The position numbers were made by a program, and so were the translations under genes. Of a stretch of DNA of 35,270 nt, positions 1,618 to 25,970 are shown in pieces. The notes below the pieces were generated by a model. That model was given only the letters and a program-made list of their open reading frames with translations, searched no databases and had not been told where the DNA came from. How positions within the stretch are numbered: the stretch's first letter is position 1; the number at the start of each line of letters is the position of its first letter. This stretch comes from Terriglobia bacterium (GTDB lineage Bacteria; Acidobacteriota; Terriglobia; UBA7540): assembly GCA_046704985.1 (NCBI GenBank), contig JBJKQV010000178.1:1-35270 (forward strand), read 5' to 3'.

Positions 1618-2409
1618 GTGAGTAGACTGGACAAGGCTCTTGCGAAACGCAAGGGCGGGGCCCTGCTGGGGCTTTCCGTTTATTCCTACGACCCTTTGTT
1701 TGTGGAGATGATTGCCCGGTTGGGATTCGATGCGCTTTGGATTGAAACCGAGCACACGACGTTGAGCTTGAGGGAGGCGGGCGACTTGTGCCGTATCGCC
1801 TCCGGCGTGGGGCTGTTGACGATGCTGCGCATCGCCGACGTGCGCCGCGAGAACGTCTTAAAGGCGGCGGAATTGGACCCGGACATCCTGGATGTTCCCA
1901 TGGTCAACGCGCCGGAAACCGCCGCGGAGCTCGTGCGTCATGCCTGTTACCCGCCCAAAGGCAACCGGGGCTTCTTCAGCGTATCGCGCGCGATGCGCTA
2001 CGGAATCGGCGGTGATATCCGCGAGGAACAACGCCGCATCAACGAGGACCTCTGCTTGATGATTCAGGTAGAAACCACCGAGGCCGTGCGGCGGGCCGAG
2101 GACCTGTGCGCTGTCCCGGGGATTGACGCGATTTTCCTGGGACCCGGAGACCTCTCGGCCAGCCTGGGTGTTACGGGTGAAACCCGGCACCCGCGAGTTG
2201 TGGAAGCCATGCAACAGACGATCCGGGTGGCCAAAGCCCGGGGAAAGCGCGTGGGTATGGCCTGCGCTCCCGGGGACGCCGCGAGCTGGGCGGCCGGCGG
2301 AGTGGATCTGTTATTCTGCGGGGGGAGTATCGCTTGCCAGCGGAGAGGCGCCCAGGAAATACTGCAAGCCAGTGCTTCCGCTCGCCTCGCGCCACCCGCC
2401 CGCGCCTGA
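1618..2409 (+). CDS. HpcH/HpaI-family 2-keto-3-deoxy-acid aldolase
   Basis: YDPLFVEMIARLGFDALWIETEHT, MLRIADV, DVPMVNAPETA, YPPKGNRGF, MIQVET and FLGPGDLS follow the HpcH/HpaI (class II pyruvate aldolase) pattern. I place the start at GTG 1618 because it is preceded by GAGGGGAGG; the track's TTG at 1516 has no RBS. The resulting 263 aa is typical for the family. Confidence 0.8.
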   Translation: MSRLDKALAKRKGGALLGLSVYSYDPLFVEMIARLGFDALWIETEHTTLSLREAGDLCRIASGVGLLTMLRIADVRRENVLKAAELDPDILDVPMVNAPETAAELVRHACYPPKGNRGFFSVSRAMRYGIGGDIREEQRRINEDLCLMIQVETTEAVRRAEDLCAVPGIDAIFLGPGDLSASLGVTGETRHPRVVEAMQQTIRVAKARGKRVGMACAPGDAASWAAGGVDLLFCGGSIACQRRGAQEILQASASARLAPPARA

Positions 2410-2518
2410 CCGAAGCTCCGGGAACCCCCGGGACGCGGAGAACGAACCGGAGCATTTGTCGGCCGGTAAGATTCGCCAGGTGGGGGTGTGGCAGACTCTC
2501 GCGAAAGAGGAGGCGACT

Positions 2519-3313
2519 ATGTCGGATGCAAGAAACTCAACAAAGAAAGGCGGTGCCAAAGCGCGCAAAACTGCCGCCCGGACTGCCGCCCTCAGGCGCA
2601 CGGGCCGCAGCGTGAATCCGCGTGGGTCGCTCCGTAACTCCCATGGCCAGGATCAGCTTTCGGTTCCGAGCTCGATTGCGGTGATGTTGCGACAGAAGAT
2701 CTTGAGCGGGGAGTTGCCGGGAGGCGCCCGCATCACCGAGAGCCGCATCAGTCGCGATTTCCGCGTCGGACAGCCGAGCGTTCGCGAGGCTTTGTTTATC
2801 TTGGAACGGCAAGGGCTGGTGGAGCGCGTGGCCAACCTGGGAACCTTTGTGCGCGAACTGGACGTTCGCGACGTGAATGAGCTTTACCAGATCCGCAGGA
2901 AGTTGGAAGGCCTAGCTTTCGAGCTGGCGGCCCGGCAAGCGAGCGAAGAACAGATCGCGGCGCTGCGCGCCCTGGTCGAGAATATGAAGCAAGCGGCGCT
3001 GAAGAAAGAAAAGCGCGGGTTTTTCGAGGGCGACCTGGCTTTTCATCGCCGCGTCTGGGAATTGACGGGTAACCGGCACCTGGTGGAGGTTCTGGAACAG
3101 ATTGTGGTTCCGCTGTTTGCCTTTAGCTTCCTCCGCGTCGAGCGCGGCACTTCGGAATTGAGTGAGTCGGCGGAAGGGCACGTGGCTCTGGTGGAGGCCC
3201 TTTCCAAGGGCCCCGAGGAGGCTCGCGAAATGTCTGAGAAGTGGGTGGAGACCTTTCTGCAGAGGTACCTGTCGCGCGTGCTGAGTGGGAGCGCCTCCGC
3301 GTACCGGTTCTAG
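2519..3313 (+). CDS. GntR-family transcriptional regulator, FadR/FCD subfamily, with a basic N-terminal extension
   Basis: The winged-helix motif is ISRDFRVGQPSVREALFILERQGLVERVANLGTFV, followed by an all-helical FCD-like C-terminal domain (YQIRRKLEGLAFELAA...HRRVWELTGN). ATG 2519 is preceded by AAAGAGGAGG. The upstream part of ORF 2123..3313 overlaps the aldolase gene and is P/R/G-rich. Confidence 0.85.
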   Translation: MSDARNSTKKGGAKARKTAARTAALRRTGRSVNPRGSLRNSHGQDQLSVPSSIAVMLRQKILSGELPGGARITESRISRDFRVGQPSVREALFILERQGLVERVANLGTFVRELDVRDVNELYQIRRKLEGLAFELAARQASEEQIAALRALVENMKQAALKKEKRGFFEGDLAFHRRVWELTGNRHLVEVLEQIVVPLFAFSFLRVERGTSELSESAEGHVALVEALSKGPEEAREMSEKWVETFLQRYLSRVLSGSASAYRF

Positions 3314-3464
3314 GCAACCGCTTCGGGGGCAGCCTGCACCCCCAGGGCCGCCCCACTGCGTCAGGCCGCCTGGGGGCGGCCACTCCGCGACCAGAAATGG
3401 ACGGTCCCGCCGCGGTGTCGAATTCTGCGCTCTTGAATTAACTCTACTGTATAAATATAGAAGC

Positions 3465-3494
3465 TTGACAGTAAATCTATAGCTCATCTATCCT
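3465..3494 (+). promoter_or_regulatory. Candidate sigma70-type promoter with embedded AATCTATA motif upstream of the Tat-protein genes
   Basis: TTGACA at 3465-3470 and TATCCT at 3489-3494 are separated by an 18-nt spacer. The spacer contains gtAAATCTATAGctcat. The site sits in an AT-rich patch within otherwise GC-rich DNA. Confidence 0.3.
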
Positions 3495-3612
3495 TGGGGT
3501 GTCGTGCCAATCGTTCCTGGAAGAGGAGCCAAGAACCCGCGACGCGCAAGCCGGGCTTGAGCGGCTGGCGCCCGGGGAAATTCCCGCAGGCAGGAGGCCC
3601 GTCGAACCCCTG

Positions 3613-5406
3613 ATGACACGCAGAGATTTCGTGACGGCGGCAGCCGCGCTGGGCTTCGCGCCCTTGGCGCGCGCCAAGTCTCCGCAGGGCGCAGTGAGCG
3701 CTCCCCTTTCCCGCACCGTTCTACCCCCTTCCGCTGGCCAGGGAGCTCTGGTGCAGGTCCATGAAGATTTCAGCCGCGACCCGGGGTGGGAAAACGTCCA
3801 CAACCGGATCGTCTGCAAGGACTGTCCGCCGGTGGCGCAGGATTTCGGCTGGGGTCCGACGTCTCACTTGGGCGGCAAGGGGGCAGAAATTGGCGGCCGC
3901 ATTTGGCAGTCTACTACGCCGGCCTACTATGGCATGCCCCTTGGGCGGCCGCTCTCGTACAACGACAGGTTTTCAGCGTCCGGGCGCATTGCCTTCATGG
4001 GTACGGAGGAAGGCCGGGGCGCGGCCTATCTGGGATTCTTCAATAACTCCCTGCACGGATGGCGGGCCTGTTCTTCTGTGGGGTTGCGCTTCATGGCTTG
4101 GTCCGGAGAAAAAGTAGGAGTTTGCCTTGACTGTGTTGACGCGCGATGGGGTAAGGACGCTGAAGAGACTGACATTTTTTTGACCGCCGACGGGTCACCA
4201 CACACGTGGAGGATCGAATACGACCCGGAAGCCAGGATGCCGGAACGGTGGTCCGACCCGCGATTGAAGAATTACTTGTCGAAAAAGCGGCAGGCATTCG
4301 ACCAGATCTATGAAAAGGCGCGGCAAGCCGAACCCGGCCTGGCGCGGGAGGCCTTGAGGCGCCGCTTGCAGACGGCGGTCGCGGAAGGCTTCCTAAGCTT
4401 TTTCCCAAGGACCCCCGGCTTCGGGATTGAGGCGTCCGTGCACGGTTACTTCTGGACCCTCAGACATAGGGAGCCCGCAAGAATGCGTGGTGCGGTCTCT
4501 TTCCAATTTGACTCGGGGCCGGTTTATAGGCTTTATCTTCGCGCCGACCACCGTGAAGCTCCACAGATCCTGAACCGTTTTGGCCTGTTCAACTTTCAGA
4601 TGTATCACCGCTGGCTGGAATTCTACGTCGCTGACTTGAAGGTGAACGGGCAAGAGATAGACCTTTCCCGGGATCCCGGGTGGGAAGGCCAAGGCAACCG
4701 CGTGCAGTTCGTCGAGCGCGATTTCCAGCGGCAGGATTTCGGATACAGCGAAACCAACTGGGCGGGCGAGCAGATTGGTGAAGTTGGCGGCCAATTCTAC
4801 CGGGCCGAGCCCGTTGATCCGGCCAACGGATATTATGCGGATGATGTCGGCATCTTGACGCTGGACGATCCTCTTAGTTTCTCAGGTAATATCTGCTTTG
4901 TGGACGCATCGACGGACTCGGGCATGTTTCTTGGTTACTTCAACGCCCGGGAGCAGGTGGCCCGCATCACCGATCCTCACGCGGGTTATCCGTTAAACGA
5001 CATGATGGGCATTGAAGTGGATGGGCCGAATCACTCTCATATCGACCCCCTGTGCTCGCCGAAGAGAGATGTGGCTTCGAAGGTGACGGGCCCGGTCTTT
5101 CTGCCTACGCGAGACCGGCACACCTTTCGGTTCGACTACGACCCTCGAGCCAACCGGGGCGTGGGGCGGATCGGGTTCCGGTTTGATCAGCAGGAATTCA
5201 CGCTGGACCTGAAACCCGAGCAGCGGGCGGCGGGGGCGCGATTTGATCACTTCGGCCTGATGAATTTACGCCGAGGCGGCAAATACGTTAGGGTGTACTT
5301 TGACGATTTAACCTATACAGCCCGCCGCCCCGGCGATTACAAAAGGGTTTTCCACCCGCAGAACATTTGGCGCGTACCTTATCCCGAGGGTGGGCGCGCA
5401 TACTAG
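3613..5406 (+). CDS. Twin-arginine-signal secreted protein of unknown family, internally duplicated (two about 280-aa modules)
   Basis: MTRRDFVTAAAALGFAPLARA is a Tat-type signal (TRRxFV). The long ORF has GC-rich third positions. Module 1 begins HEDFSRDPGWEN and module 2 begins IDLSRDPGWEG. It is a paralog of the next gene. I recognise no family. Confidence 0.8.
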   Translation: MTRRDFVTAAAALGFAPLARAKSPQGAVSAPLSRTVLPPSAGQGALVQVHEDFSRDPGWENVHNRIVCKDCPPVAQDFGWGPTSHLGGKGAEIGGRIWQSTTPAYYGMPLGRPLSYNDRFSASGRIAFMGTEEGRGAAYLGFFNNSLHGWRACSSVGLRFMAWSGEKVGVCLDCVDARWGKDAEETDIFLTADGSPHTWRIEYDPEARMPERWSDPRLKNYLSKKRQAFDQIYEKARQAEPGLAREALRRRLQTAVAEGFLSFFPRTPGFGIEASVHGYFWTLRHREPARMRGAVSFQFDSGPVYRLYLRADHREAPQILNRFGLFNFQMYHRWLEFYVADLKVNGQEIDLSRDPGWEGQGNRVQFVERDFQRQDFGYSETNWAGEQIGEVGGQFYRAEPVDPANGYYADDVGILTLDDPLSFSGNICFVDASTDSGMFLGYFNAREQVARITDPHAGYPLNDMMGIEVDGPNHSHIDPLCSPKRDVASKVTGPVFLPTRDRHTFRFDYDPRANRGVGRIGFRFDQQEFTLDLKPEQRAAGARFDHFGLMNLRRGGKYVRVYFDDLTYTARRPGDYKRVFHPQNIWRVPYPEGGRAY

Positions 5407-5566
5407 CGTCCGGAATTCCGATCGCGCGGAGCGGGAGAGGGGTCCGCTTGTCGGCGGGGCACTGAAGACCAAGCAGATTCCTCGGGTCGGTTATGTGCCT
5501 CGGTCCTCGGAATAACCGAAGCGGAGGTTCTTTCAGCGAGCCGCGAAGGGAGGGGGGCTACGATTC

Positions 5567-7345
5567 ATGCGGTTGACCCGAAGGAAATTCGTCACCAGTA
5601 CGGTCGCGCTGGGGGTAGCGCCTCTCTCGAAGCTTGCGATGGCCTTCGGTTCGGGAGTGAATCAAAGGCCTTCCCCGGGCACTTCCGTCCAGCCGGAACA
5701 GACGGGTCTCGTCCAGGTTCATGAAGATTTCAGCCGGGACCCGGGTTGGGACAACATCCACAACCGGATTGTCTGCAAGGACTGCCCGACGGTGGTGCAG
5801 GATTTCGGCTGGAGACCGACGGCGCACGTGGGAGGTAGGCCGGGTGAGATTGGCGGCCGGGTGTGGCAATCGCGAACGCCGGCGTTTTATGGTTTGCCTC
5901 TCGGACGCCCCCTCTCCTTCAACGACCGGTTTTCCGCCTCGGGGCGCATCGCCTTCATGAGGACAGAAGGCCTGGGGGCGGCCTACCTGGGCTTCTTTAA
6001 CAACGCCCTGCAGGGGTGGCGTCCCTGGTCTTCGGTGGCTTTTCGTTTGGTGGCGGAAGCGGGGAACAAAGTCCGGGCCGACATCGACTACATGACGGCC
6101 AAGTGGGGAGCCTTTGGCGACGAGACCGATATCCTGATATCTGCCGACGGTTCACCCCATACGTGGAAGATGTCCTACGATCCCGAGGGCAGGATGGCCG
6201 CCCGCTGGCCTGATCCCAGGCTGCGAAACTACCTGAGCACCCGGCGCCAAACCGCAACGCAAATCTACGAGCGGGCGCGCCAAGCCGAGCCCGGCCTAAC
6301 GCGTGAGGAGTTGATGGAGCGCCTGCGCGCCGCTCTGGCCGAGGACCTGCTGCGATTTTTTCCCCGGCCGCGCGGCGATTTCTGGACCCTCAACGAGCAT
6401 AAGCATGAGCCGACGAAGGGGACGATCAATTTCCAGTTTGACTCCGGCCTGGAACACAGTTTTCACGTCCTGGCTGAGCATCGCCAGTCCCCCCTCATCC
6501 TCAATCGCTTTGGGATTTTCAACTATCAGATCTACCACCGCTGGTTGGAGTTCTACGTCGCTGACCTGACGGTGAACGGGCAGGCCCTCGACCTGTCGAG
6601 CGACCCGGGCTGGGAAGGCCACGGCAACCGTGTGCAGTTCGTCGAGCGGGATTTCCAGCGGCAGAATTTCGGATACAGCGAAACCAACTGGGCGGGGAAG
6701 CAGATCGGAGAAATCGGAGGGGAGTTCTACAGGGTCGAGGCCGTAGACCCCTACAACGGTTACTATGCCGACGAGATCGGCGCCTTGACGCTGGATGACC
6801 CTATCGAGTTCTCCGGCCAGGTCTGCTTCGTAAGCGGCGGAACCGATGCCGGCATGTTTCTCGGGTACTTCAATGCCCGGGAGAAGATGGCTCCCATCAC
6901 CGACCGCTTGGGGGGCGATCCTCTCGACGACACTCTGGGCGTCGAGATCGCGGGACCCACGCGCATCGGGTACTACTTCAGTGCGGTGTGTTCTCCCAAG
7001 AGGCGTGTCGCCTCCCACCGGCACGGCCCGGTGTTTCTCCCCACCGCCGACCGTCACGCATTTCGCTTCACTTACGACCCCAAGGACAACGGCGGCGTGG
7101 GAAGAATCCGCGTGTGGCTGGATGAGGAAGAATTCACACTGGACTTGAAACCCGAGCAGCGGGCGGCGGGCGCGCGATTCGATCACTTCGGCCTGATGAA
7201 CTTACGCCGGGGAGGCAAGTACGTGACCGTGTACTTCGATGACCTGACTTACACCGCCCGCCGTGCCAGCAACTACCGACGCATCCGTCATCCCCAGAAG
7301 ATTTGGGAGGTCCCCTATCCTCAAGGGGGACGCACCTATGAATGA
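5567..7345 (+). CDS. Twin-arginine-signal secreted protein, paralog of 3613..5406 with the same two-module architecture
   Basis: ATG 5567 is preceded by GAAGGGAGGGGGG. The Tat-type signal is MRLTRRKFVTSTVALGVAPL. The protein is collinear with the upstream gene, including identical blocks such as LVQVHEDFSRDPGW and EFTLDLKPEQRAAGARFDHFGLMNLRRGGKYV. Confidence 0.85.
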   Translation: MRLTRRKFVTSTVALGVAPLSKLAMAFGSGVNQRPSPGTSVQPEQTGLVQVHEDFSRDPGWDNIHNRIVCKDCPTVVQDFGWRPTAHVGGRPGEIGGRVWQSRTPAFYGLPLGRPLSFNDRFSASGRIAFMRTEGLGAAYLGFFNNALQGWRPWSSVAFRLVAEAGNKVRADIDYMTAKWGAFGDETDILISADGSPHTWKMSYDPEGRMAARWPDPRLRNYLSTRRQTATQIYERARQAEPGLTREELMERLRAALAEDLLRFFPRPRGDFWTLNEHKHEPTKGTINFQFDSGLEHSFHVLAEHRQSPLILNRFGIFNYQIYHRWLEFYVADLTVNGQALDLSSDPGWEGHGNRVQFVERDFQRQNFGYSETNWAGKQIGEIGGEFYRVEAVDPYNGYYADEIGALTLDDPIEFSGQVCFVSGGTDAGMFLGYFNAREKMAPITDRLGGDPLDDTLGVEIAGPTRIGYYFSAVCSPKRRVASHRHGPVFLPTADRHAFRFTYDPKDNGGVGRIRVWLDEEEFTLDLKPEQRAAGARFDHFGLMNLRRGGKYVTVYFDDLTYTARRASNYRRIRHPQKIWEVPYPQGGRTYE

Positions 7346-7409
7346 ACTGCCGGTCTGCTCCATGTGGGCAGGCTGCGTGCAATCCCCGGCTTAAGGAGGG
7401 AAACAACTC

Positions 7410-9026
7410 ATGATGACACGAAGACAGTTCGTCGGCGCAGCCGCCGCTATGGGGCTGGCACCTCTGCCCAAGGCCTGGCCCTCTGCCGGGCCTGCCAAAG
7501 ACGCCTCCACTCCCGTGCCTTTCGACGGCAATCAAAGGGTCGAACATTACGTCCTGCTCGGCAACCGCATGGTCTTCACCAACTGGTACTTTGTGCGGCC
7601 CGGGAACGTGGACTGGGTGGACGCGAGCGGCAAGAGCGTCTACGCCAGTAAAGAGGCGATGGGGCCGTGGGCGGCGCGCTTTGCGGGCAAGGATTTTCCT
7701 CACGGAGTGCGGATTGTCGCCCAGCCCGCGCAGCGCCAGGGGCCGATCATTCATCCCGAGCGCCCCTGGGAGAAGTCGGGAATCGTCTTTGGCACGGTCA
7801 TTCACGAAGGCGGCACTTACCGGGCGTGGGGGAACTGCTATGCGGGGGTGGAAGGCGTTTCGGCGTATTTTGAGTCGCGCGACGGACTGAACTGGACGCG
7901 GCCGAACCTGGGGCTGCAAGAGCACAACGGAAGCCGCGCCAACAACCTGCTCCACACCCCGCCGGGCGGCGGAGTCTGGATCGACCCGCACGCGGCGCCG
8001 GGAGAGAAATACAAAACGGCCGGCTCCCACCGCTACACCAAGGCGCAATACGAAACGTGGCTCAAAAGCCATCCCGGTCAAGTCGATCCGATGGTGCAGG
8101 ACAACCACGACCTCAGCGCCTACCACGGCATCTCCGGCTCGACCTCCGCGGACGGGTTGCACTGGAAACGGTTGCCGGAGCCCCTGGTTTTTCAGTATAG
8201 CGACACGCAGATTGTGGGCTATTACGACCTGCGGCGGCGGCAGTATGTACTCTACACTCGCGCTTACATGGGCGCCGGGCCGTCGCACCGGCGCGCCGTC
8301 GGCCGCACCCAGAGCGAGGAGTTCGGCAACTTCCCGATCTCCGACCTCATCCTGGAGACCGCACCGTCCATGGGACCGTGCGATACGCTCTACACCAACT
8401 GCCGCACCACCATCCCCGGCGCTCCTGACCATCACCTGATGTTCCCGGCCGTCTACGAGCTCCAGGTCGACAGTACCCAGATCGCCTTCGCCTCCAGCCA
8501 CGACGGGGTGATCTGGTCCTTTGTGCCCGGGTCGCCCATCGCCTCGCCCGGCACCTTTGGCGAGTGGGACGGCGGCAACATGTTCGCATTTTCCAACCTG
8601 CTGGAGCTTGCCGACGGCAGTTTTGTTCTTCCTTTTACCGGCTTCATCTTCCCGCACAAGTATCCGCGCGGGGAGTGGGAGATGGGGAGCGGCTACCTGA
8701 CCTGGCCGAAGGGCCGGCTGGTGGCGATTGAAGCACCCGACGTGGGCGAGTTTTCGACGGTGGGGTTTCTGCCTCCCGGGCGCAAGGTGCTCATCAACGC
8801 CCTCACCCCGCGGGCGGGAGAGATTCGCGTCGAGGTGGCCACCGACCCGGAAGGGAAGACGGTCGCCGGGCGCTCGTTTGAGGAGTGCAAGCCGCTGATC
8901 GGAGATTGCTACAAGACGCCGATTACGTGGAACGGGCAGGAGGATCTGGGCTCCAGGGAAGGAACGCCCGTAATCCTGCGCTTCCGGCTGGACCACGCGC
9001 AGATCTTCGGCCTGGAGTTCGTCTGA
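7410..9026 (+). CDS. Twin-arginine-signal secreted beta-propeller-like protein (putative glycoside hydrolase, family unassigned) with C-terminal beta-sandwich-like domain
   Basis: ATG 7410 is preceded by AAGGAGGG. The signal is MMTRRQFVGAAAAMGLAPL. Three Asp-box-like SxDGxxW motifs are present (ESRDGLNWTRP, TSADGLHWKRLP, SSHDGVIWSF). The C-terminus is ...PVILRFRLDHAQIFGLEFV. Confidence 0.8.
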   Translation: MMTRRQFVGAAAAMGLAPLPKAWPSAGPAKDASTPVPFDGNQRVEHYVLLGNRMVFTNWYFVRPGNVDWVDASGKSVYASKEAMGPWAARFAGKDFPHGVRIVAQPAQRQGPIIHPERPWEKSGIVFGTVIHEGGTYRAWGNCYAGVEGVSAYFESRDGLNWTRPNLGLQEHNGSRANNLLHTPPGGGVWIDPHAAPGEKYKTAGSHRYTKAQYETWLKSHPGQVDPMVQDNHDLSAYHGISGSTSADGLHWKRLPEPLVFQYSDTQIVGYYDLRRRQYVLYTRAYMGAGPSHRRAVGRTQSEEFGNFPISDLILETAPSMGPCDTLYTNCRTTIPGAPDHHLMFPAVYELQVDSTQIAFASSHDGVIWSFVPGSPIASPGTFGEWDGGNMFAFSNLLELADGSFVLPFTGFIFPHKYPRGEWEMGSGYLTWPKGRLVAIEAPDVGEFSTVGFLPPGRKVLINALTPRAGEIRVEVATDPEGKTVAGRSFEECKPLIGDCYKTPITWNGQEDLGSREGTPVILRFRLDHAQIFGLEFV

Positions 9027-9052
9027 GCGGTCCCGAAAGGGCTTGTCGTGGG

Positions 9053-10216
9053 TCAGGCAATACGCCGGCCGAATTTTTTCAAGGCGACCGGGTCAATTTC
9101 GAAACCGAAGCCGGGCCGCTCGGAAAGATAGACTACCCCCGCGCGGATTTCAGGGCGGCCGAGATACAAGCGGTCCCAGAAGGGATCGCGCTCACGGTTG
9201 GGGAAAGCCTCAACAATGTAGCCGTTGCTCGCCGCCGCGACCAGGTGGGCATGGATTTGAGGATCGTGGTGCGGAGCCATCAGCACTCCGTTGGCGGCCG
9301 CGCAGGCGGTGATTTTCAGCCACTCGGTAATGCCTCCTGCGCGCGTGCTGTCGAATTGCATGAGGCGAATGCCGCCGTGGTCAATCAGGTCCCGGCAGCC
9401 CCAGCGGTGAATCTCGCTTTCGCCGCTGGCGATGGGGATATGGGTGGAGAGGGCCACTTGTTTGAGGCCGGAGCCGGCGTCGTACCAGCGCACGGGTTCT
9501 TCCAGCCAGTCGATTCCAAAGGGGGCAAACGCCTTGGCCGCGGCAATGGCGGCGGGCACGTCGTAGGCTTGGTTGGCGTCCAGGAAGAGGCAAATGTCCG
9601 GGCCCACCGCTTCCCGGACCGCCTGCACCCTGCGCACGTCCTCGCGCAGCGGGAGCCCGCCGATCTTCATCTTGACGGCCTTGTATCCTGCCCCCACATA
9701 CCCCCGCATCTCCGCCACCAGTTTCTCCACGGCCGCTTCACCGCGCGGCCCGTAGTAGCCCCCGCTGGCATAGGCTTTGGCCTTGCCTTCCTGGCCCCCC
9801 AGCAGGCGGAATACCGGCAGACCCAGGCTCTTGCCTTTGATATCCCAAAGAGCGATGTCGATGCCGGCGATGGCCGCCAAGGTTTGCGCGGGCGGGATGG
9901 TGCTGAGTTGAGGCTGCTGCTTCTTTCCGCGCGGAGCCAGGGGAGGCCGCGTGCAGGTGGTCAGAAACAGGTCTTCGTATATCGTTTCGGTGGCCAGAGG
10001 GTCACGCCCCAGGAGCAGGGGGGCGAAAACCTCACGGATGATCGCCGCGATGGCCTTCAGGGGGCGGCCGTGGATTTCACCGATTCCCGAAATGCCTTCG
10101 TCCGTTTCAATGCGCACCAGGATCTCGGAAGCGTCTTGGATCGGTTCCAGCGACATCCAGAAAGCCCGCTTGAGCTGGACGCGAAGCAGATGGAGCTTGA
10201 TGGCGGTAATCTTCAT
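9053..10216 (-). CDS. Enolase-superfamily enzyme, mandelate racemase subgroup (putative acid-sugar dehydratase)
   Basis: The N-terminal capping domain is GISGIGEIHG. A KxK motif lies in YKAVKMKIGG. Metal-ligand contexts are FLDANQAY, IDWLEEPV and IASGESE. Asp and His candidates lie in MQFDSTRAGG and LMAPHH. ATG 10216 (MKITAIK) has GAGGTG upstream. Confidence 0.85.
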   Translation of the reverse strand: MKITAIKLHLLRVQLKRAFWMSLEPIQDASEILVRIETDEGISGIGEIHGRPLKAIAAIIREVFAPLLLGRDPLATETIYEDLFLTTCTRPPLAPRGKKQQPQLSTIPPAQTLAAIAGIDIALWDIKGKSLGLPVFRLLGGQEGKAKAYASGGYYGPRGEAAVEKLVAEMRGYVGAGYKAVKMKIGGLPLREDVRRVQAVREAVGPDICLFLDANQAYDVPAAIAAAKAFAPFGIDWLEEPVRWYDAGSGLKQVALSTHIPIASGESEIHRWGCRDLIDHGGIRLMQFDSTRAGGITEWLKITACAAANGVLMAPHHDPQIHAHLVAAASNGYIVEAFPNRERDPFWDRLYLGRPEIRAGVVYLSERPGFGFEIDPVALKKFGRRIA

Positions 10217-10493
10217 AGCGCGGGACACCTCGAGTTTGTGGCCGTCCGGCTTGCGCGCGTCACTCTGCTGACGGAGCCCGGTTTACTCAAACCATCATAA
10301 GGCAAGACACAGTGAAACTGAAGGCGTCCCCCGGCGGGGGGACGGTGGCGGCTGAAGGGCCGTCGCGGCACCGCAAGCGCCTTTATAGATTACCAATTTA
10401 ATGGTACGCTATTCAACTCGTTTTACTCGCCGGGAGGCACTTGGCCCCCCGGGGGCAGTGACCCCCGGCGAGGACCTGGAAGGGAGGCGGGGC

Positions 10494-12155
10494 ATGAAAG
10501 GCGAAGGGATCGGGCGGCGGGGCTTTCTCAAGGCGGCCGCGGGAGCGGCGGCGGCATCCGTGGTGACGCCACCGGGATCGGCGAAGGCGGCGGAACCTCT
10601 CCCCCAGCAGGAATATGGCGAGCCGTATTCACTGGCCGGCAAGCGCCTAGTCTTCCTGAACTGGCACTACATCCGCCCCGGCACTTTTGGCTGGTACGAC
10701 TCCTCGGGGTGGAAGGTGGGGCTCACCGATGCCGTCCCCCCAGGGGAAGCCCATCTGCGCCGCAAGGACAGTCCGCGCGGAATTCGCCTGGTGGCACAAC
10801 CCGCTCAGCGCCTGGGGCCGCTGTTTGAGGCTTCCCAACCGTGGGAGGAGGGTGCGGGCGTGGCGCTCACCACGGTCGTCCAGGACGGCGGCGTGTATCG
10901 CGCCTGGGGCGCACCGTTTACCACTGCCGGCAATCCTCCCGGGCAGAAGTACTTCACCTACTACGAGTCATCCGACGGCCTGACCTGGAAGCGGCCGAGC
11001 CTGGGCATCGTGGATTTCCAGGGAAGCAAGAACAACAACATCGTGAACATCTTCGGCACCGACGGGGGCACGGTCTTTGTCGACCCTTCCGCTCCCCCTG
11101 CCGAGCGCTACAAGATGATCGCCGAAATGAAATTCAGCGCCCGGGTTTGCAACGCTTACCGGCGCCGCCGCCCGCACGATTGGGGCCCGCTCGTTAAGTC
11201 CCACGCCGACGGCTCGGCCAAGGGGTTGACCGGGGCGGCCTCGGCCGATGGGATGCACTGGAAGCAGTTCCCGGATCCGATGGTGATCGAGTACACCGAC
11301 ACGCAGATCACCGCCTACTACGACCAGCAACTCGGCAAGTACGTCGCCTATACGCGCAGCTACCCCGTCGGCCTGCGCGCTCCGGACGCCCACCTGGATG
11401 GAAAGCAGACCTGGCGCGTCACCCGGCGCTCCATCGGCCGCGCGGAAAGCGACAGCTTCCGGGAGTTTCCCCTCCAGAAGACCATGCTCGAACCCGGACT
11501 GCGCCTCTCACCTTCGCAAGTCCTGTATACCAATTGCAAGACCACCATCCCCGGTGCGCCCGACCATCACCTGCTGTTTCCCGCCGTCTGGGACATGGCC
11601 GTGGACACCACGAGCATTCACGTGGCCAGCAGCCACGACGGGAGGCTGTGGCACTTCCTCGAGGGGTCGCCGGTCTTCGAGCCCGGCCCCTTTGGCGCCT
11701 TCGACGGAGGGGTGATCTTTGCCCATCCCAACCTGGTCGAGCTGGCGGACGGGCGCTTTGTGCTTCCTTACACCGGCTACGACGTGCCTCACAAATACCC
11801 GCGCAAGCTCTGGAAGTACGCCCCCGGCTACGCCGTGTGGCCCAAAGGGCGGCTGGTGGCTTTGCAGGCGGATTACGGCGAATTCGCCACGGTGGCTATC
11901 ATGCCCCCGGGCCGTCACCTGCGCATCAACGCCCTCACCGACCGGGGAGGGAGCATCCGCGTGGAGGTGGCGGGATTCGACCATCAGCCGCTGCCACACC
12001 GCTCGTTCCAGGACTCGACGCCTGTCTTTGGCGATTTGCACTGGAGCCCGCTGAGTTGGAACGGTGAAGAGGACCTGGGCAACGCCGAGGGCTCGCCGGT
12101 GATGCTGCGCTTCCGGCTCGACCACGCGCGGATCTTCGGCTTGGAGTTTGCTTGA
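10494..12155 (+). CDS. Twin-arginine-signal secreted beta-propeller-like protein, paralog of 7410..9026
   Basis: ATG 10494 is preceded by GGAAGGGAGG. The signal is MKGEGIGRRGFLKAAAGAAAA. It is collinear with 7410..9026 (RLVAQPAQRLGP, YESSDGLTWKRP, ASADGMHWKQFP, TNCKTTIPGAPDHHLLFPAVW, SSHDGRLWHF, LRFRLDHARIFGLEFA). Confidence 0.8.
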   Translation: MKGEGIGRRGFLKAAAGAAAASVVTPPGSAKAAEPLPQQEYGEPYSLAGKRLVFLNWHYIRPGTFGWYDSSGWKVGLTDAVPPGEAHLRRKDSPRGIRLVAQPAQRLGPLFEASQPWEEGAGVALTTVVQDGGVYRAWGAPFTTAGNPPGQKYFTYYESSDGLTWKRPSLGIVDFQGSKNNNIVNIFGTDGGTVFVDPSAPPAERYKMIAEMKFSARVCNAYRRRRPHDWGPLVKSHADGSAKGLTGAASADGMHWKQFPDPMVIEYTDTQITAYYDQQLGKYVAYTRSYPVGLRAPDAHLDGKQTWRVTRRSIGRAESDSFREFPLQKTMLEPGLRLSPSQVLYTNCKTTIPGAPDHHLLFPAVWDMAVDTTSIHVASSHDGRLWHFLEGSPVFEPGPFGAFDGGVIFAHPNLVELADGRFVLPYTGYDVPHKYPRKLWKYAPGYAVWPKGRLVALQADYGEFATVAIMPPGRHLRINALTDRGGSIRVEVAGFDHQPLPHRSFQDSTPVFGDLHWSPLSWNGEEDLGNAEGSPVMLRFRLDHARIFGLEFA

Positions 12156-12229
12156 CCCCTTGGCGCAGCATGACGGGGAAAGGCCGCGAGTGCTCAGGCG
12201 CGGCTTCAGGGAAATGGAGGCAGTGGAAA

Positions 12230-13480
12230 ATGAGGATTCGCCAAGCGCCTGAGCGCCCACGGCATCGACGGCGGGGCGTGGTCCTGCTCGCCCTGGCGGC
12301 GATCGCGGGGGGCTTGGCCGTGTGGGGCGCCGGTCTGCCCGCTCCGTCATCTTCATTGCCGCAGATGCTCAAAATTGTCTGGCAGAAGGGGCCCGACCTG
12401 CCGCAGGGATTTCAAGACAGCAGCGGCGGCATCGTCGATCACTTTCTGGTGACGGTGGCGGGTTTCTGCACGGGCCAGACCCAAGGCGTGGTCAATAAAC
12501 TTGGCAAATATCCCCGCGGGTTCCTCAAGAAGTCCTGGGCGCTCAATCTTCAGGCGCCGCAAAGCGGCTGGCAGCGCTTGCCGGATTTTCCCGGGGCGGC
12601 CCGGCAAGCGCTTACCTGCGCTGCTGTGGACAACCATATTTATTGCTGGGGCGGCTTCAGTGACTTCTCTCCCTATTGCTACCGCGACGGTTACGAGTTG
12701 TCCCGGACGGACGGCCAATGGAAATGGCAGAGCTTGCCGGAACTCCCTTGGAGGTACGCTGGGGCCGGGATGTGCGCAGTGGGGCCGAAGATCTACTGGC
12801 TGGGCGGAGTGGACCGCGCCGAGACCCACACGAAGTTCTACACCAACTCCGGCCCCGCGGGCCGTGTCTCCCGCCGGGGCGCGCGTCTGCTGGTTTTTGA
12901 TACCCGCGAGCCCCAGCGGGGATGGCAGGAATTGCCGAGCTGCCCCGGAACACCCCGCTGGGTGCCCGCGATGGCGGCGGTGAAGGGAGAGATCTATGTC
13001 CTCGGCGGGGCCACGGGGAGGGACAACCCCACCGGCCACTACTGCACGGTGGTGGATAACTGGAAGTTTGACCCCGCCCGCAAGGCCTGGACACGCCTGC
13101 CCGACTCTCCCGTTTCCAGCGGGAATTTTCCCACCGGCGCCATTGTTTATCAGCACCGTTTCATCCTGCTGATTGGGGGCGGCCAATACCCTCACGTCAT
13201 GGGCCCCTCGGGAACCCTGAGCAAGCCCTACGGGAAGACCTTCAAGCATTACCTCCATAATCCTTACAACAGCAACGTGTGGGTGTTTGATACCCGCACC
13301 AACGCCTTCGGCACGGCAACTCCCCTGCCGCTTAACAACAATTTGCCTATGGCGGTCCTGGAAGGAAACCAGCTCAACTTGCTTGGGGGCGAGACGGGCG
13401 GGGCGGTCGTCGACGGCGAGTACTTTGGCCACCATCCCGACCTTTACCTGGTTGGGGAGATCTCCCGTGTCCGTCACTAG
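12230..13480 (+). CDS. Kelch-repeat beta-propeller protein (NanM/YjhT mutarotase-like), N-terminal twin-arginine signal or anchor
   Basis: ATG 12230 is preceded by GGAGG. The N-terminus is RHRRRGVVLLALAAIAGGLAV. Blade motifs repeat: IYCWGGF, IYWLGGV, IYVLGGA, ILLIGGG, LNLLGGETGG. W-x-x-LP motifs are also present (WQRLPDFP, WQSLPELP, WQELPSCP, WTRLPDSP). Confidence 0.75.
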   Translation: MRIRQAPERPRHRRRGVVLLALAAIAGGLAVWGAGLPAPSSSLPQMLKIVWQKGPDLPQGFQDSSGGIVDHFLVTVAGFCTGQTQGVVNKLGKYPRGFLKKSWALNLQAPQSGWQRLPDFPGAARQALTCAAVDNHIYCWGGFSDFSPYCYRDGYELSRTDGQWKWQSLPELPWRYAGAGMCAVGPKIYWLGGVDRAETHTKFYTNSGPAGRVSRRGARLLVFDTREPQRGWQELPSCPGTPRWVPAMAAVKGEIYVLGGATGRDNPTGHYCTVVDNWKFDPARKAWTRLPDSPVSSGNFPTGAIVYQHRFILLIGGGQYPHVMGPSGTLSKPYGKTFKHYLHNPYNSNVWVFDTRTNAFGTATPLPLNNNLPMAVLEGNQLNLLGGETGGAVVDGEYFGHHPDLYLVGEISRVRH

Positions 13481-13813
13481 AACGATCAAACCGCTCATCG
13501 CAGGCGAGCTGCGGCACGGGGCACTCCCGGGGTCGCAAGGACAGGGCACAGGTGGAATACCTGGTTCGGATTTCATATTGTTGGTGCCCTGCGACAACAT
13601 GCTCAAGTTGATCGGCAACGAGGCTCATTCCTTGAGCGCGGTCGTGCTGGATGGCTTCACGGTCCAGCAGGAGTTTTGGCCGGCCGATGCGCCAGCCTTC
13701 CAGTTTCGCCCGCCACAAGCCAGACGGCGGCACGGTCTTGGTCAATTTTTCGGCCTGGAATTTGCCTCAGGATGCGGTGTGAGCCGGATGGGGGGGGCAA
13801 GCCACTGGGCCGT

Positions 13814-15037
13814 TCATGCCCGGCGCGCGGCGGGCATGAAGAAGCGCGCCAAGATGCCTCCCAGGAGCATGCCCGCGCCCAGCAACGCAAAAGCGTAGAT
13901 GAAATTGCCGGTGCGCTGCTTGAAGTATCCTACCAGCAGCGGCCCGAAGTAGCCGCCCAGGTTGCCCAGAGCGTTGACCAGCCCCATGGCCGTGCCGGCG
14001 GCGCGGCGGGGCAGGGTTTCGGTGGGAATGGCCCAGAAGGGTCCCATGGCGCCGTACGACCCGGCGCCCACCAGGGCCACCAGGGCAAAGGAGAGCAGCG
14101 GCGCGCGGGTACTCAGTGCCACGCCGCCCAGCAGCAGGATTCCAGCCCATGCCAGCCCCGCCGCCACGTGCCGGCTGCGCTCGCGCTCGCGGTCGGAGTG
14201 GCGTGAGAGAATTTCCATCCCCAGCGCCGTCAAAGCAAAGGGCAGCGTGAAGAGCAGGCCAACCGAGAATTCACTCAGTTTCTTGTGGCTTTCCAGCGCC
14301 GTGGGCAGCCAGAACAGGTAGCCGTAGTTTCCCGTGTTGAGCAGGAAGTAGACCACCACCATCACCAGCACGTGCGGGCGCAGAAGCGTGCGCAGATAAG
14401 GTTCCGGAGCCGCCGGCTCGGTCTCGCTGGCCTCCCGCTCCAGGGTGGTTTCCAGGTACGTGCGCTCTTCCGGCGAGATCCAGGAAGCCTGGCGGGGATG
14501 GTCGTTGATGAAGAACGCCCATACGCCCAGCCACAGGATCGGCCACAAGCCTTCGAAGATGAGCAGCACTCTCCAGTCCCAGTGGCCCAGAATCCATCCC
14601 GACAGGGGGGAGGAGATCACCACCGCCACGGGAAGGCAGAGCATCCAGTAAGCGTTGGCGCGGGCGCGCTCGGTGCGCGGGAACCAGTGCGCCAGCAGCA
14701 CCAGGGTGGCCGGCCAGACACCGCCCTCCGCGATGCCCAGCATCAGGCGCATGGTCCAGAATTCCCGCCCCCTATGCACCAGGCCGGTCAGCACTGCGCA
14801 GGCGCCCCACAGCGCCAGCAGGATGGCGACAAAGCGCTTGGCGCTCCAGCGGCTGGCCAGATACCCGCCGGGAATTTGCAGCACCAGGTAGCCCCAGAAA
14901 AACACCCCCGCGGCGCTCCCCGCCTGCTGCGCGTCCATGTGCAATTCACGGCTGATCTGGGGCAGGGCGAGGGAGATGTTGGTGCGGTCAACGAAGGCGA
15001 TGGTATACATGATGAAGGCTACAGGAATTATGCGCAT
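13814..15037 (-). CDS. MFS transporter, anion:cation symporter (ACS) type, like hexuronate/galactonate/rhamnonate transporters
   Basis: The sequence is hydrophobic and multi-span. The N-terminus IIPVAFIMYTIAFVDRTNISLALP plus GYLASRWSAKR is typical of ACS-family MFS. The start is uncertain: I use ATG 15037; GTG 15055 is an alternative; the track's TTG 15184 has no RBS. Confidence 0.8.
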   Translation of the reverse strand: MRIIPVAFIMYTIAFVDRTNISLALPQISRELHMDAQQAGSAAGVFFWGYLVLQIPGGYLASRWSAKRFVAILLALWGACAVLTGLVHRGREFWTMRLMLGIAEGGVWPATLVLLAHWFPRTERARANAYWMLCLPVAVVISSPLSGWILGHWDWRVLLIFEGLWPILWLGVWAFFINDHPRQASWISPEERTYLETTLEREASETEPAAPEPYLRTLLRPHVLVMVVVYFLLNTGNYGYLFWLPTALESHKKLSEFSVGLLFTLPFALTALGMEILSRHSDRERERSRHVAAGLAWAGILLLGGVALSTRAPLLSFALVALVGAGSYGAMGPFWAIPTETLPRRAAGTAMGLVNALGNLGGYFGPLLVGYFKQRTGNFIYAFALLGAGMLLGGILARFFMPAARRA

Positions 15038-15660
15038 CCATCGCTGGTTGGGCACGGCTCCACGTCCTGGCACGGCGCGCGGAGAGCGGTGCCAGGCTGT
15101 CGAAGTAAGGCGCCGTCCACGCGGGCGGGAAATGACTCGAGTACGAAGAATAGTATCAACGGGATCATTGAACCCGTCAAGCAAACACCACCAGGAGAGT
15201 GATTGTAGTGTTCCAATCTTATATAAATCTATATCCGATGGCGTGCCGGCGCGGGATCGATTGTAGGCTTGTGGTACCTGTTCGTTTTATGTCAAGCCGA
15301 CACCGGGAGATCGAGCGCAGGTTGTCAATTGCCAAGGATGCCTGCGGCAACAACTCTTCTTTGAAGACCGAAGCGACGGCGAGCAACCTAGCAATCTTCT
15401 GTCTTTACCTGAATGCCCTTGATGCAGGTTTCAGGTCGACTCGGTCAATTCTCGATTTGTGGTGGGGAAACGTTGGAGGGATCCAGTCCATTGACTGTGG
15501 GGACTCTTGTGGGGACCCCAAATGCATTTGCACCTCTGTTGGTGCAACTCAAAACAACTCCCTCCAAGTCGGCAGCTCGTTGACCTACAAGGCGTTGCAG
15601 GGTTTTCTGCCTTCGGTTCAAGGAGTTGTGAATCTGGCTCAATTACGGCTCTTCATCAGC

Positions 15661-15693
15661 GGGTTGGGGGTTCGATTCCCTCACGGCTCACCA
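15661..15693 (+). other. Orphan tRNA-like 3' end (T-arm plus acceptor 3' strand plus ACCA) without a cloverleaf partner
   Basis: GGGGG-TTCGATT-CCCTC forms a canonical T stem-loop. It is followed immediately by 7 nt (ACGGCTC), then A, then CCA. I could not find a complementary 5' acceptor strand, D-arm or anticodon arm within about 450 nt upstream. Confidence 0.35.
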
Positions 15694-25841: not shown

Positions 25842-25938
25842 GCCGTTCGTCTCCTGAGATTCAAGTGAAGGGTCATTATAGGCGCTTTGGGCTCGCGGTG
25901 AAACCCGGTTGCGGGCGATGGATCGCCCCGGGGATGGG

Positions 25939-25966: not shown

Positions 25967-25970
25967 GAAC

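Follow-up and report, generated by a model that had tools for sequence, protein, structure and literature searches.

In the L-rhamnonate system of E. coli (RhmR, RhmD, RhmT and RhmA; yfaXWVU), an enolase-superfamily enzyme, an HpcH aldolase, an anion:cation symporter (ACS)-type MFS transporter and one local regulator, of the IclR type, are found together, and an acid sugar is turned via a 2-keto-3-deoxy acid into pyruvate and an aldehyde; no secreted proteins belong to this system. The same triad logic underlies the glucarate/galactarate pathway (GudP/GarP, GudD or TalrD/GalrD, and GarL). Sialic-acid clusters contain a GH33 sialidase, the mutarotase NanM, NanT/SiaT, the lyase NanA, AGE/NanE and NagB, and 3,6-anhydrogalactose pathways contain a GH117 propeller, an aldehyde dehydrogenase and an enolase-type cycloisomerase. 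Features of each of these systems were found in a locus at positions 1618–15037 of a 35,270-nucleotide stretch of Terriglobia bacterium DNA (contig JBJKQV010000178.1), the whole of which is called the window here. On balance, we slightly favor the view that this is a GntR/FCD-controlled glycan-scavenging locus, by which an acidic sugar would be released, imported and cleaved to pyruvate.

The preliminary description of the locus had listed an HpcH aldolase, a GntR/FCD regulator, a mandelate-racemase (MR)-subgroup enolase and an ACS-type MFS transporter, and profile searches confirmed the positions and identities of all of them. Gene B (1618..2409, plus strand) encodes an HpcH/HpaI-family class II pyruvate aldolase of 263 aa (PF03328, 92.6 bits), and gene C (2519..3313, plus strand, start ATG at 2519) a FadR-type GntR/FCD regulator of 264 aa with a basic N-terminal extension (PF00392 and PF07729). 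They are followed on the same strand by D (3613..5406), its paralogue E (5567..7345, 65% identity) and F (7410..9026). The enolase-superfamily gene G (9053..10228; PF02746 and PF13378) lies on the minus strand between F and its paralogue H (10494..12155, plus strand, 47% identity), so that the five plus-strand genes for exported proteins described earlier are present but not strictly consecutive. The last of them, the Kelch gene I (12230..13480, plus strand), is convergent with the transporter gene J (13814..15037, minus strand). Twin-arginine signals had been claimed for all five products. The motif, with a hydrophobic segment and an AxA-type end after it, is present in D (TRRDFV), E (TRRKFV), F (TRRQFV) and H (GRRGFLK). 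The N-terminus of I (RHRRRGVVLL), by contrast, contains RR but is not a canonical Tat signal and might act as a Sec signal or anchor the protein in the membrane.

A putative promoter/operator of the D-E-F operon is located at 3430..3494 on the plus strand, where CTCTTGAATTA (3430–3440) is followed by TTGACA-18-TATCCT (3465–3494) with AATCTATA (3474–3481) in the spacer. CTCTTGAATTA is also present upstream of B (1562–1572). AATCTATA has three occurrences in the 35 kb, all in promoter regions: that of D, the divergent G/H intergenic region (10384..10391, minus strand) and the region about 190 bp upstream of J (15226..15233, plus strand). The words are AT-rich and were chosen after inspection, with a block-shuffle p of about 0.005–0.01, and they are not conserved in the related locus L084. 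They give a hint of co-regulation within the window.

As judged from their sequences, D/E and F/H are two large, completely unannotated families with no match in Pfam, NCBIfam or PDB, which bears out the earlier view of the locus as uncharacterised. D and E had been listed as two unknown proteins. Both turned out to belong to one family, and within each of them a ConA/laminin-G-like jelly roll is duplicated in tandem. The two halves of D are 29% identical (E = 6e-13), and its AF2 model (pLDDT 90) was matched by Foldseek to laminin-G domains, legume lectins, calreticulin and PL7 lyases. D homologues form 374 clusters at 90% identity, and a search with the D profile matched 1,751 representatives of clusters at 50% identity. 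In P0404 a D-type domain is joined to a BNR_2 sialidase-like propeller, and elsewhere such domains are fused to an ECF sigma factor, dockerin or fn3 domains; the latter fusions suit a binding module as well as an enzyme. The PL7 alginate lyases among the fold matches suggest a possible uronate/aldarate route, in which PL7-like lyases D/E and exo-enzymes F/H would release (unsaturated) uronates that, once oxidised to aldarates or 5-keto-4-deoxyglucarate, would be handled by a TalrD/GalrD-like G, a GarL-like B and a GudP/GarP/ExuT-like J. However, the PL7 matches of D (target-normalised TM-score about 0.4–0.5) are no better than its lectin matches.

For F, which has homologues in 699 clusters, the AF2 model (pLDDT 90) predicts a five-bladed propeller with a C-terminal beta-sandwich. 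The Foldseek matches were glycosidases/phosphorylases of GH32, GH43, GH130 and GH137 and the FpGalNAc deacetylase (E about 1e-10 to 1e-8). The propeller and sandwich match those of the GH families with a probability of 1.0, but the TM-scores are modest (0.3–0.4 query-normalised, 0.29–0.66 target-normalised) and F has no sequence-level membership in them. Three SxDGxxW Asp-box-like motifs are conserved in F and H and, together with many basic residues (Arg, Lys and His), invariant in the F family. The earlier designation of F and H as Asp-box propellers of the sialidase/glycosidase type is therefore kept for the motifs and the glycosidase-type fold, while a six-bladed sialidase identity was rejected because the predicted fold is a five-bladed propeller plus beta-sandwich like those of GH32, GH43, GH130 and GH137.

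From this fold we predict that F and H are exo-glycosidases. They might instead be metal-dependent deacetylases/amidases like the F. plautii GalNAc deacetylase, or phosphorylases, or the locus might act on a non-carbohydrate substrate. The best query TM-score (0.40) among the top ten matches listed for F belongs to the deacetylase structures 6n1a/6n1b and not to a glycosidase, and these are also its only marginal profile match (E = 0.04). Many invariant Arg, Lys and His residues are likewise seen in GH130 phosphorylases, and the top NCBIfam match of B is HpaI, an enzyme of aromatic catabolism. We consider these options very unlikely, as F/H have the same two-domain architecture as GH32 and GH43 and the neighbourhoods are dominated by CAZyme and sugar-transport genes (GH106, GH38, GH2, GH36, beta-helix proteins, sulfatases, CUT1-type ABC transporters and LacI/IclR regulators). 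Roughly one in four of the F homologues listed lacks an N-terminal signal as judged by motif and hydrophobicity, and one such protein is encoded directly between a sugar-type ABC importer and HpcH.

Co-conservation was assessed in 22 well-flanked loci with a D protein that shares at least 40% identity with D/E of the window. An F-type propeller was present in nine of them and an HpcH or DHDPS aldolase in nine, with both in eight, while homologues of the enolase, MFS, Kelch and GntR genes were found in none of the 22. The same-strand string DHDPS, F-like, D was seen in 12 genomes, annotated as Calditrichota/Calditrichia, Ignavibacteriales/Melioribacteraceae, Cytophagia/Bacteroidetes, Chlorobiota, Neomarinimicrobiota and Lentisphaeria. 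HpcH adjoins F or D in L001, L004, L008, L012, L072 and L084, and a third, unrelated pyruvate-aldolase family (RraA-like) occurs with F-type propellers in L139. Of six F-centred look-ups, three lacked an aldolase within 10 kb. What is conserved across genomes is the set of D, an F-type propeller and a pyruvate aldolase (HpcH, DHDPS or RraA-like), and this linkage crosses phyla. The MAG relatives L006–L083 are annotated as Planctomycetota, Verrucomicrobiota, Calditrichota, Bacteroidota-type groups and one Solibacteraceae, most of them without a habitat label. Since D-family and F-type genes stand beside a pyruvate aldolase in many unrelated genomes, the secreted proteins have a real link to 2-keto-3-deoxy acid cleavage. 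Co-conservation, proposed earlier as a test of the locus, thus holds for the aldolase but fails for the dehydratase, the transporter and the Kelch protein.

Alternatively, the locus could be a mosaic, in which a general module for the catabolism of acid sugars or organic acids (GntR, HpcH aldolase, enolase and MFS) is interleaved by chance with an unrelated secreted glycan-processing set (D, E, F, H and Kelch) with no common substrate. Consistent with this are the missing MFS, Kelch and GntR genes in the 22 D loci and the contexts of the closest G relatives (55–61% identity), which were never found beside D or F and adjoin M20 peptidases, Opp-type permeases and IclR regulators, a peptide-type setting; in other cases their neighbour is an aldehyde dehydrogenase or an HpcH that shares just 30% identity with B. 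With these contexts and no co-conservation with D or F, G could therefore have an unrelated role here. On the other hand, B orthologues (60–72% identity) directly adjoin F or D genes in three other genomes (L084, L004 and L012), two related clusters, L001 and L084, likewise begin with a GntR/FCD gene, pyruvate aldolases of three non-homologous families are repeatedly found beside F-type propellers, and promoter words are common to the B, D, G/H and J regions. We regard a mosaic of the entire locus as unlikely; the idea is plausible for the enolase and the MFS transporter and not plausible for the aldolase.

B is about equidistant from HpaI, RhmA and GarL (101–126 bits against NCBIfam cutoffs of 369–441), and its nearest PDB entries are 3qz6, YfaU (RhmA), HpaI and GarL. 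G was placed in the MR subgroup because its sequence shows a KxK motif (AVKMKIGG), the D/E/E metal ligands and a His-Asp pair, and it is probably an acid-sugar dehydratase. Among NCBIfam families it comes closest to TalrD/GalrD (189 bits, cutoff 500) and AraD, and its best PDB matches (4h83, 3msy and 3no1, E = 3e-64) are deposited only under the generic mandelate racemase/muconate lactonizing enzyme name. The equivalog cutoffs for RhmD, RhmA, GarL and TalrD/GalrD were all missed widely by B and G. The preliminary description had read the locus as Rhm-like. On such a reading, a 6-deoxyhexose (rhamnose or fucose) or another aldose would be released and oxidised elsewhere to the aldonate; after import, G would dehydrate this acid and B would split the product into pyruvate and lactaldehyde. 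The triad does follow the logic of rhmD, rhmA and rhmT, including the expected route from acid sugar to pyruvate and aldehyde, YfaU is the second-best PDB match of B, and L084 has a GH106 rhamnosidase. Even so, this is the least probable of the readings weighed here: the RhmD model gives 117 bits on G (cutoff 393) and the RhmA model 108 bits on B (cutoff 441), the regulator is GntR/FCD and not IclR, and the enolase and MFS genes are not co-conserved with D or F, so the triad is no conserved unit. Sugar dehydrogenase and lactonase are absent from 1618–15037, as had been noted earlier; the window holds neither of them and no aldehyde dehydrogenase, and the pathway as drawn is therefore incomplete.

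For the uronate/aldarate route speak the best family match of G, the L-talarate/galactarate dehydratase, the similar scores of B with GarL and RhmA, a KduD/gluconate-5-dehydrogenase-like SDR and an IclR (KdgR-type) regulator in DHDPS-type loci, and pectate-lyase-like beta-helix proteins in some F neighbourhoods. It nevertheless appears quite improbable, as the family cutoffs are all missed by a factor of 2–4, the window has no uronate dehydrogenase, KduI, KdgK or KdgA, and the locus has neither GarR/GarK nor an evident aldarate source. With the 3,6-anhydrogalactose pathways the locus shares, by predicted folds and sequence, a five-bladed exo-glycosidase and an enolase-superfamily enzyme, G being matched by the cycloisomerases 5xd7 and 5olc (PDB, E about 1e-44 to 1e-46). 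Aldehyde dehydrogenase and enolase occur together in L001 and L072, whereas the window has no aldehyde dehydrogenase and the top fold matches include no GH117 structure.

The earlier naming of I as a NanM-like Kelch mutarotase homolog was upheld by its membership in the Pfam NANM (sialate mutarotase) family (PF24996, 93.7 bits, cutoff 45); with TIGR03547 it scored 92.8 bits, below the cutoff of 256, and E. coli YjhT matched it with only E = 8e-4. The I family is 50–64% conserved across taxon-named matches (Terriglobia, Planctomycetota/Phycisphaerae) and adjoins glycosidases, and in L139 such a Kelch gene lies beside F-type propellers, an enolase, the RraA-like aldolase and a 2-hydroxyacid dehydrogenase. 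J matches PF07690 and, with 291 bits against a cutoff of 395, TIGR00893 (E = 1e-86); its translation likely starts at the ATG at 15037. The locus resembles sialic-acid clusters in having an exported propeller, a Kelch protein of the NanM family, an anion transporter and a pyruvate lyase. Related loci also contain an SSF transporter, an AGE epimerase and a NagB-like gene (together with HpcH in the Fontivita locus), a NanA-like DHDPS protein and the BNR_2 fusion. Unlike in those clusters, the propeller is five-bladed and not GH33, the lyase is a class II HpcH and not a class I NanA, and there is an enolase, which the sialate pathway does not need.

As the sugar we would first guess an ulosonic or ulosaric acid (Kdo/Kdn/sialic-like, or the C7 diacid Dha). 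The released sugar would then itself be, or come close to being, the aldolase substrate. The NanM-family Kelch gene in the window, the Fontivita locus genes and the P0404 fusion count for an ulosonic-acid flavour. Of the two substrates considered earlier, a keto-deoxy/ulosonic acid suits the neighbourhoods better than a deoxyhexose. C4-acid enzymes near the aldolase also count for the glycan-scavenging explanation, namely a tartrate dehydrogenase in L072 (467 bits, cutoff 470), an SSADH-like aldehyde dehydrogenase in L001 and, two genes away from the aldolase in L084, a DUF1537 four-carbon acid-sugar kinase.

In the order of steps that we infer for glycan scavenging, the two pairs of exported paralogues would have an acidic glycan or oligosaccharide as their extracytoplasmic target, with F/H as five-bladed-propeller exo-glycosidases and the tandem jelly rolls of D/E binding or cleaving the glycan. 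I may speed anomer interconversion of the released sugar, J would import the anionic sugar, and in the cytoplasm B would split a 2-keto-3-deoxy acid into pyruvate and an aldehyde. G would make the keto-deoxy acid by dehydration or process the second product. The release, import and splitting proposed earlier are thus partly supported, by the link between secreted proteins and aldolase but not by co-conservation of the dehydratase, transporter and Kelch protein. The recurrence of the D/F-aldolase link in many phyla points to an undescribed sugar-scavenging pathway.

The genes of the locus are lettered in their order along the window. The plus strand carries an HpcH/HpaI aldolase (B, 1618-2409), a GntR+FCD regulator whose ATG was located (C, 2519-3313), a gene of a family without annotation (D, 3613-5406) with its paralogue at 65% identity (E, 5567-7345), a gene of another family without annotation (F, 7410-9026) with its paralogue at 47% identity (H, 10494-12155), and a Kelch protein (I, 12230-13480). 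An enolase-superfamily enzyme (G, 9053-10228) and an MFS transporter (J, 13814-15037) are encoded on the minus strand. The G+C content of the window is 62-65%, and the best taxon-named homologues of the Kelch protein and of D come from Terriglobia (64%) and Solibacteraceae (54%), respectively. With the TonB-dependent receptor of the window (CarboxypepD_reg/OMP_b-brl_4), these homologues suggest that the DNA probably comes from a member of the Acidobacteriota. The families D/E and F/H are without annotation in the libraries searched, and almost all of their named members are annotated as 'hypothetical protein'.

Nothing usable was found for D and E in Pfam or NCBIfam, or for D among PDB sequences, whether the search was made with the single sequence or with a 60-sequence profile. 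AlphaFold models of D and F built on family alignments had a pLDDT of 90 and a pTM of 0.86-0.88. According to its model, D consists of two jelly rolls of the ConA/laminin-G type, and the halves of the protein are a duplication (29% identity, E = 6e-13). Foldseek retrieved LG domains, legume lectins, calreticulin, and PL7 alginate lyases, all with low TM-scores and with E-values from 2e-9 to about 6e-4 across the 50 matches listed. Lectins and PL7 lyases scored alike, and the predicted fold of D and E is the beta-jelly roll of both PL7-type lyases and ConA-like lectins. The family is large: 374 clusters were counted at 90% identity, and a profile search with D reached 1,751 representatives at the 50% level. 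Distant D-type C-terminal jelly rolls (P0393, P0404, P0389, P0401, P0443) occur as fusions with an ECF sigma factor, a BNR_2 sialidase-like propeller (P0404), right-handed beta-helix domains, a dockerin, and fn3 repeats. The fusions to catalytic domains, dockerin, fn3, and ECF sigma factor fit a binding or sensing role for D and E; strong full-length conservation allows them to be catalysts, e.g., a lyase.

F and H likewise had no usable match in Pfam or NCBIfam, and neither had the distant branches of the propeller family. Marginal matches of F were NF052550 of NCBIfam (E = 0.004, 16.5 bits) and 6euf (E = 0.88), and in single-sequence and 60-sequence-profile searches against PDB sequences, profile matches appeared only at E-values of 0.04 or worse. 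F was modeled as a five-bladed beta-propeller followed by a beta-sandwich, the fold of the GH32/GH43/GH130 clans. The structural matches (Foldseek E 1e-10 to 1e-8, probability 1.0) included GH32 fructofuranosidases and levan fructotransferase, GH43 xylosidases, GH130 mannoside phosphorylases, the GH137 enzyme BT_0996, and the five-bladed GalNAc deacetylase of F. plautii. By sequence, Pfam, NCBIfam, and PDB profiles did not place F in GH32, GH43, or GH130, and the propeller belonged to none of the GH families tested. In the preliminary description, the proteins had been called Asp-box propellers, sialidase- or glycosidase-like. The motif had been read correctly, as F and H carry three invariant SxDGxxW motifs in agreement with the Asp-box pattern (SxDxGxxW), which is not exclusive to sialidases. 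The sialidase label itself was rejected: F and H had no BNR match in Pfam, with a sialidase appearing only at E = 1.6, and the five predicted blades speak against a six-bladed GH33 enzyme. Because of this modeled propeller and the GH32/43/130-type fold matches, F is predicted to be glycosidase-like. The F family comprises 699 clusters at 90% identity. In a tblastn search of plasmids D had no match, and F matched one distant 'hypothetical protein' in an uninformative neighbourhood.

Twin-arginine export had been proposed for D, E, F, H, and I, and apart from the Kelch protein this largely holds. Taking as Tat signal an (S/T)RRxF(L/V) motif with a hydrophobic region and an AxA cleavage site, we found in translation canonical N-termini in D (TRRDFV), E (TRRKFV), F (TRRQFV), and H (GRRGFLK), each continuing into a hydrophobic stretch with an AxA-type end. 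The N-terminus of I (RHRRRGVVLL) is non-canonical as a Tat motif and shows no clear AxA. A motif screen detected Tat-like N-termini in 50 of the 120 listed F homologues versus 7 of the 120 listed D homologues. The public gene call of D (P0001, 551 aa) begins 3' of the Tat signal, and therefore the export signal would be missed by automated annotation. About a quarter of the F homologues (30 of the 120 listed) were without an N-terminal signal when screened for motif and hydrophobicity; examples are P0126, P0127, and P0153, and clear cases begin with 'MAT..TGEPYEL'. One signal-less F-type gene (locus L004, 10001-11542) is immediately flanked by a CUT1-type ABC importer on one side and an HpcH aldolase on the other.

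The locus had further been likened to RhmD, RhmA, and RhmT of the E. coli L-rhamnonate system. G matches the Pfam domains MR_MLE_N and MR_MLE_C, and its translation (AVKMKIGG, LFLDAN, WLEEP, ASGES, QFDSTR, MAPHH) contains the mandelate-racemase-subgroup features, namely the KxK at strand 2, the D/E/E metal ligands, and the His-Asp dyad of strands 7 and 6. It scored 116.6 bits against the RhmD equivalog NF011968 (cutoff 393) and 189 bits against the TalrD/GalrD model NF047820 (cutoff 500), and is thus not assigned to TalrD/GalrD or GudD. The aldolase B reached 107.9 bits with the RhmA equivalog NF007521 (cutoff 441) and 101-104 bits with GarL (cutoff 393-407). For J, the nearest ACS-family model was TIGR00893 (E = 1e-86; 291 bits, under the cutoff of 395). 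The Kelch protein passed the Pfam NANM cutoff of 45 with 93.7 bits, stayed below that of the YjhT-family model TIGR03547 (92.8 bits, cutoff 256), and matched the YjhT structure 2uvk weakly (E = 8e-4). The Pfam domains of C make it a GntR+FCD regulator, in contrast to the IclR-type RhmR. In how it works, the locus resembles the Rhm and Gar modules for acid sugars as well as the sialic-acid utilisation clusters, but it belongs to none of these, since the equivalog cutoffs were all missed by a factor of two to four. Systems of this kind, polysaccharide-utilisation loci that supply a non-phosphorylative acid-sugar route, are already known.

Two further routes were considered. The match of G to cycloisomerases prompted a comparison with agar/carrageenan anhydro-sugar catabolism, which was rejected as an aldehyde dehydrogenase is missing from the window and the top fold matches include no GH117 structure. 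A sulfoquinovose-type route was brought up by AGE isomerase, PfkB kinase, SSADH-like dehydrogenase, and sulfolactate-dehydrogenase-like Ldh_2 genes among the neighbours; it was set aside since no sulfosugar dehydrogenase or lactonase and no GH31 sulfoquinovosidase were seen.

Altogether 78 genome loci around D homologues were scored with the proteins of the window and of related loci, and 22 of them combined flanks of 5 kb or more on either side with a D protein of at least 40% identity. In this well-flanked set, an F-type propeller was present in nine loci, an HpcH or DHDPS aldolase in nine, and both in eight. Conservation of the entire gene string was not borne out, as homologues of the enolase, MFS, Kelch, and GntR proteins occurred in 0/22. 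A same-strand string of DHDPS, F-like propeller (25% identical to F, E = 6e-13), and D was found in 12 MAGs annotated as Calditrichota/Calditrichia, Ignavibacteriales/Melioribacteraceae, Cytophagia/Bacteroidetes, Chlorobiota, Neomarinimicrobiota, and Lentisphaeria, frequently accompanied by a TonB-dependent receptor, an IclR regulator, a KduD/gluconate-5-dehydrogenase-like SDR, a PhoD-like phosphodiesterase, and FG-GAP proteins. Loci with an HpcH aldolase read GntR, propeller, F, SSF, HpcH, aldehyde dehydrogenase, 2-hydroxyacid dehydrogenase, enolase, D (L001); F, propeller, D, F, LacI, HpcH, tartrate dehydrogenase, aldehyde dehydrogenase, 2-hydroxyacid dehydrogenase, enolase (L072); GH106, cupin, GntR/FCD, HpcH (72% to B), class II aldolase, DUF1537 kinase, racemase-like, TonB receptor, F (62%) (L084); IclR, sugar ABC system, signal-less F, HpcH (60% to B) (L004); and aldehyde dehydrogenase, HpcH, D (L012). 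Fontivita pretiosa (L002/L008) has SSF, PhyH, HpcH, NagB-like, 2-hydroxyacid dehydrogenase, AGE epimerase, FG-GAP, four D paralogues, and a double propeller. Conservation is high in the Kelch family, whose usual neighbours are glycosidases. At L139 the Kelch gene is accompanied by an enolase, a 2-hydroxyacid dehydrogenase, and three F-type propellers, together with an RraA-like protein of a third pyruvate-aldolase family.

Among 48 metagenome loci, the closest relatives of G (55-61% identity) were never beside D or F. Their neighbours were M20 peptidases, IclR regulators, Opp-type permeases, aldehyde dehydrogenase, or an HpcH 30% identical to B. In the window, G may dehydrate an imported aldonate or aldarate, process the aldolase co-product, or be an unrelated neighbour. 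No aldolase was found near F in three of six F-centred look-ups, and these neighbourhoods were CAZyme-rich (beta-helix proteins, GH2, GH36, sulfatases). The annotated relatives of D and F come from the glycan-degrading phyla Planctomycetota, Verrucomicrobiota, Calditrichota, Bacteroidota-type groups, Armatimonadota, and Acidobacteriota.

A PLC/acid-phosphatase-type phosphoesterase (A, 7-1371, plus strand; PF04185), identified from the ORF listing and family scans, sits 246 bp 5' of B, and a PhoD-like phosphodiesterase lies directly 3' of the D-family gene in 12 other genomes (L013, L016, and ten further DHDPS-type loci). These genes may hint at phosphodiester links in the target polymer, as in teichoic-type or phosphoglycan polymers. 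Just beyond J, the minus strand encodes a secreted M20 peptidase (16173-17666) and an Acidobacteria-type TonB-dependent receptor (18152-21862; CarboxypepD_reg and OMP_b-brl_4). M20 genes, 25% identical to that of the window, are also found 5' of the close relatives of G, and at L084 a TonB receptor of this type is directly 5' of the F orthologue. A stretch of about 1 kb (15200-16170) has a low G+C content (55% vs about 64%) and no convincing gene, its sole ORF (15199-15882) being of odd composition. Scans of the window for tRNA and Rfam families found nothing. The genes at 23961-26090 (minus strand), 25965-30446, and 32109-34409, namely a GH15/trehalase-like enzyme, enoyl-CoA hydratases, a C26 peptidase, a PaaA/PaaC-like protein, and a molybdopterin-binding dehydrogenase subunit, look unrelated to the locus.

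The 8-mer AATCTATA occurs three times in the 35 kb versus 0.12 expected, always in promoter regions of the locus. One copy lies within the spacer of the TTGACA-18-TATCCT promoter that precedes D, another between the divergent genes G and H, and the third upstream of J. A further word, CTCTTGAATTA, is common to the regions upstream of B and of D. Word sharing had a p of about 0.005-0.01 in shuffles keeping local composition, with the words picked after inspection. None of these words was found in the related loci, L084 included, and therefore the evidence for co-regulation comes from the window; with words chosen post hoc and not kept in L084, it is suggestive only. In the divergent G/H region, a G+C-rich hairpin with an 8-bp stem (CGTCCCCCCGCCGGGGGACG; 10325-10344, minus strand), after which comes a weak T-run, separates the AATCTATA word from the start of G and could be a leader structure. 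Both promoter regions of L084, the closest related cluster (2676-2770 and 6686-6900), have the GntR-operator-like words TGGTCTGATGACC, CAGTCATCAGATGA, and CAGTCATCTG in common, which are unlike the words shared in the window.

As to its genes, the preliminary description proved mostly right once corrected as above, and its interpretation found partial support. It had outlined an uncharacterised path from a glycan through an acid sugar to pyruvate. This outline is well grounded for the core of D, F, and aldolase; its RhmD/RhmA/RhmT-like framing is not, given the missed equivalog cutoffs and a triad that is not conserved. In the most parsimonious mechanism, F/H, and perhaps D/E, would act on an acidic glycan in the periplasm, J would import the product, and B would cleave a 2-keto-3-deoxy acid to pyruvate and an aldehyde. 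It may be that the glycan yields a keto-deoxy acid (ulosonic or ulosaric) from the outset, as suggested by several observations: the aldolase and not the dehydratase is the conserved partner, three unrelated aldolase families fill the same slot, and signal-less F variants sit between importer and aldolase. The NanM-family protein in the window, the AGE, NagB, and SSF genes of Fontivita, and the BNR_2 fusion in P0404 point in the same direction.

Enzymes for four-carbon acids (tartrate dehydrogenase, SSADH-like dehydrogenase, DUF1537 kinase) occur in the aldolase clusters of several loci. From their chemistry, they would fit a C7 diacid such as Dha, a homologue of the GarL and HpaI substrates. 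Dha is a sugar of pectin RG-II. On the broadest reading, which we regard as rather unlikely, the D family and the F superfamily, including its distant DHDPS-side and Fontivita branches, would be two new CAZyme families releasing 2-keto-3-deoxy (ulosonic/ulosaric) sugars from environmental glycans, and would form with a pyruvate aldolase a widespread undescribed catabolic route; candidate sugars are Kdo, Kdn, other nonulosonic acids, and Dha. In one version of this reading, Dha would be split into pyruvate and a C4 aldehyde-acid, which would then be oxidised to D-tartrate or phosphorylated by a DUF1537 kinase. Literature searches on GH143/Dha, heptulosaric acid catabolism, Kdo hydrolases/new GH families, HpcH with enolase and Tat, Fontivita pretiosa, and PDB entries 4H83, 3NO1, and 3MSY found nothing describing these families or a Dha catabolic route.

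The recurrent link to three unrelated pyruvate-aldolase families provides a concrete biochemical context for the D and F families. If the Dha version is true, it would give a natural source for the activities of D-tartrate-type enolase and tartrate dehydrogenase. If the two families are enzymes for ulosonic or other acidic sugars, they would be new CAZyme families and would fill a gap in the mineralisation of complex acidic glycans.
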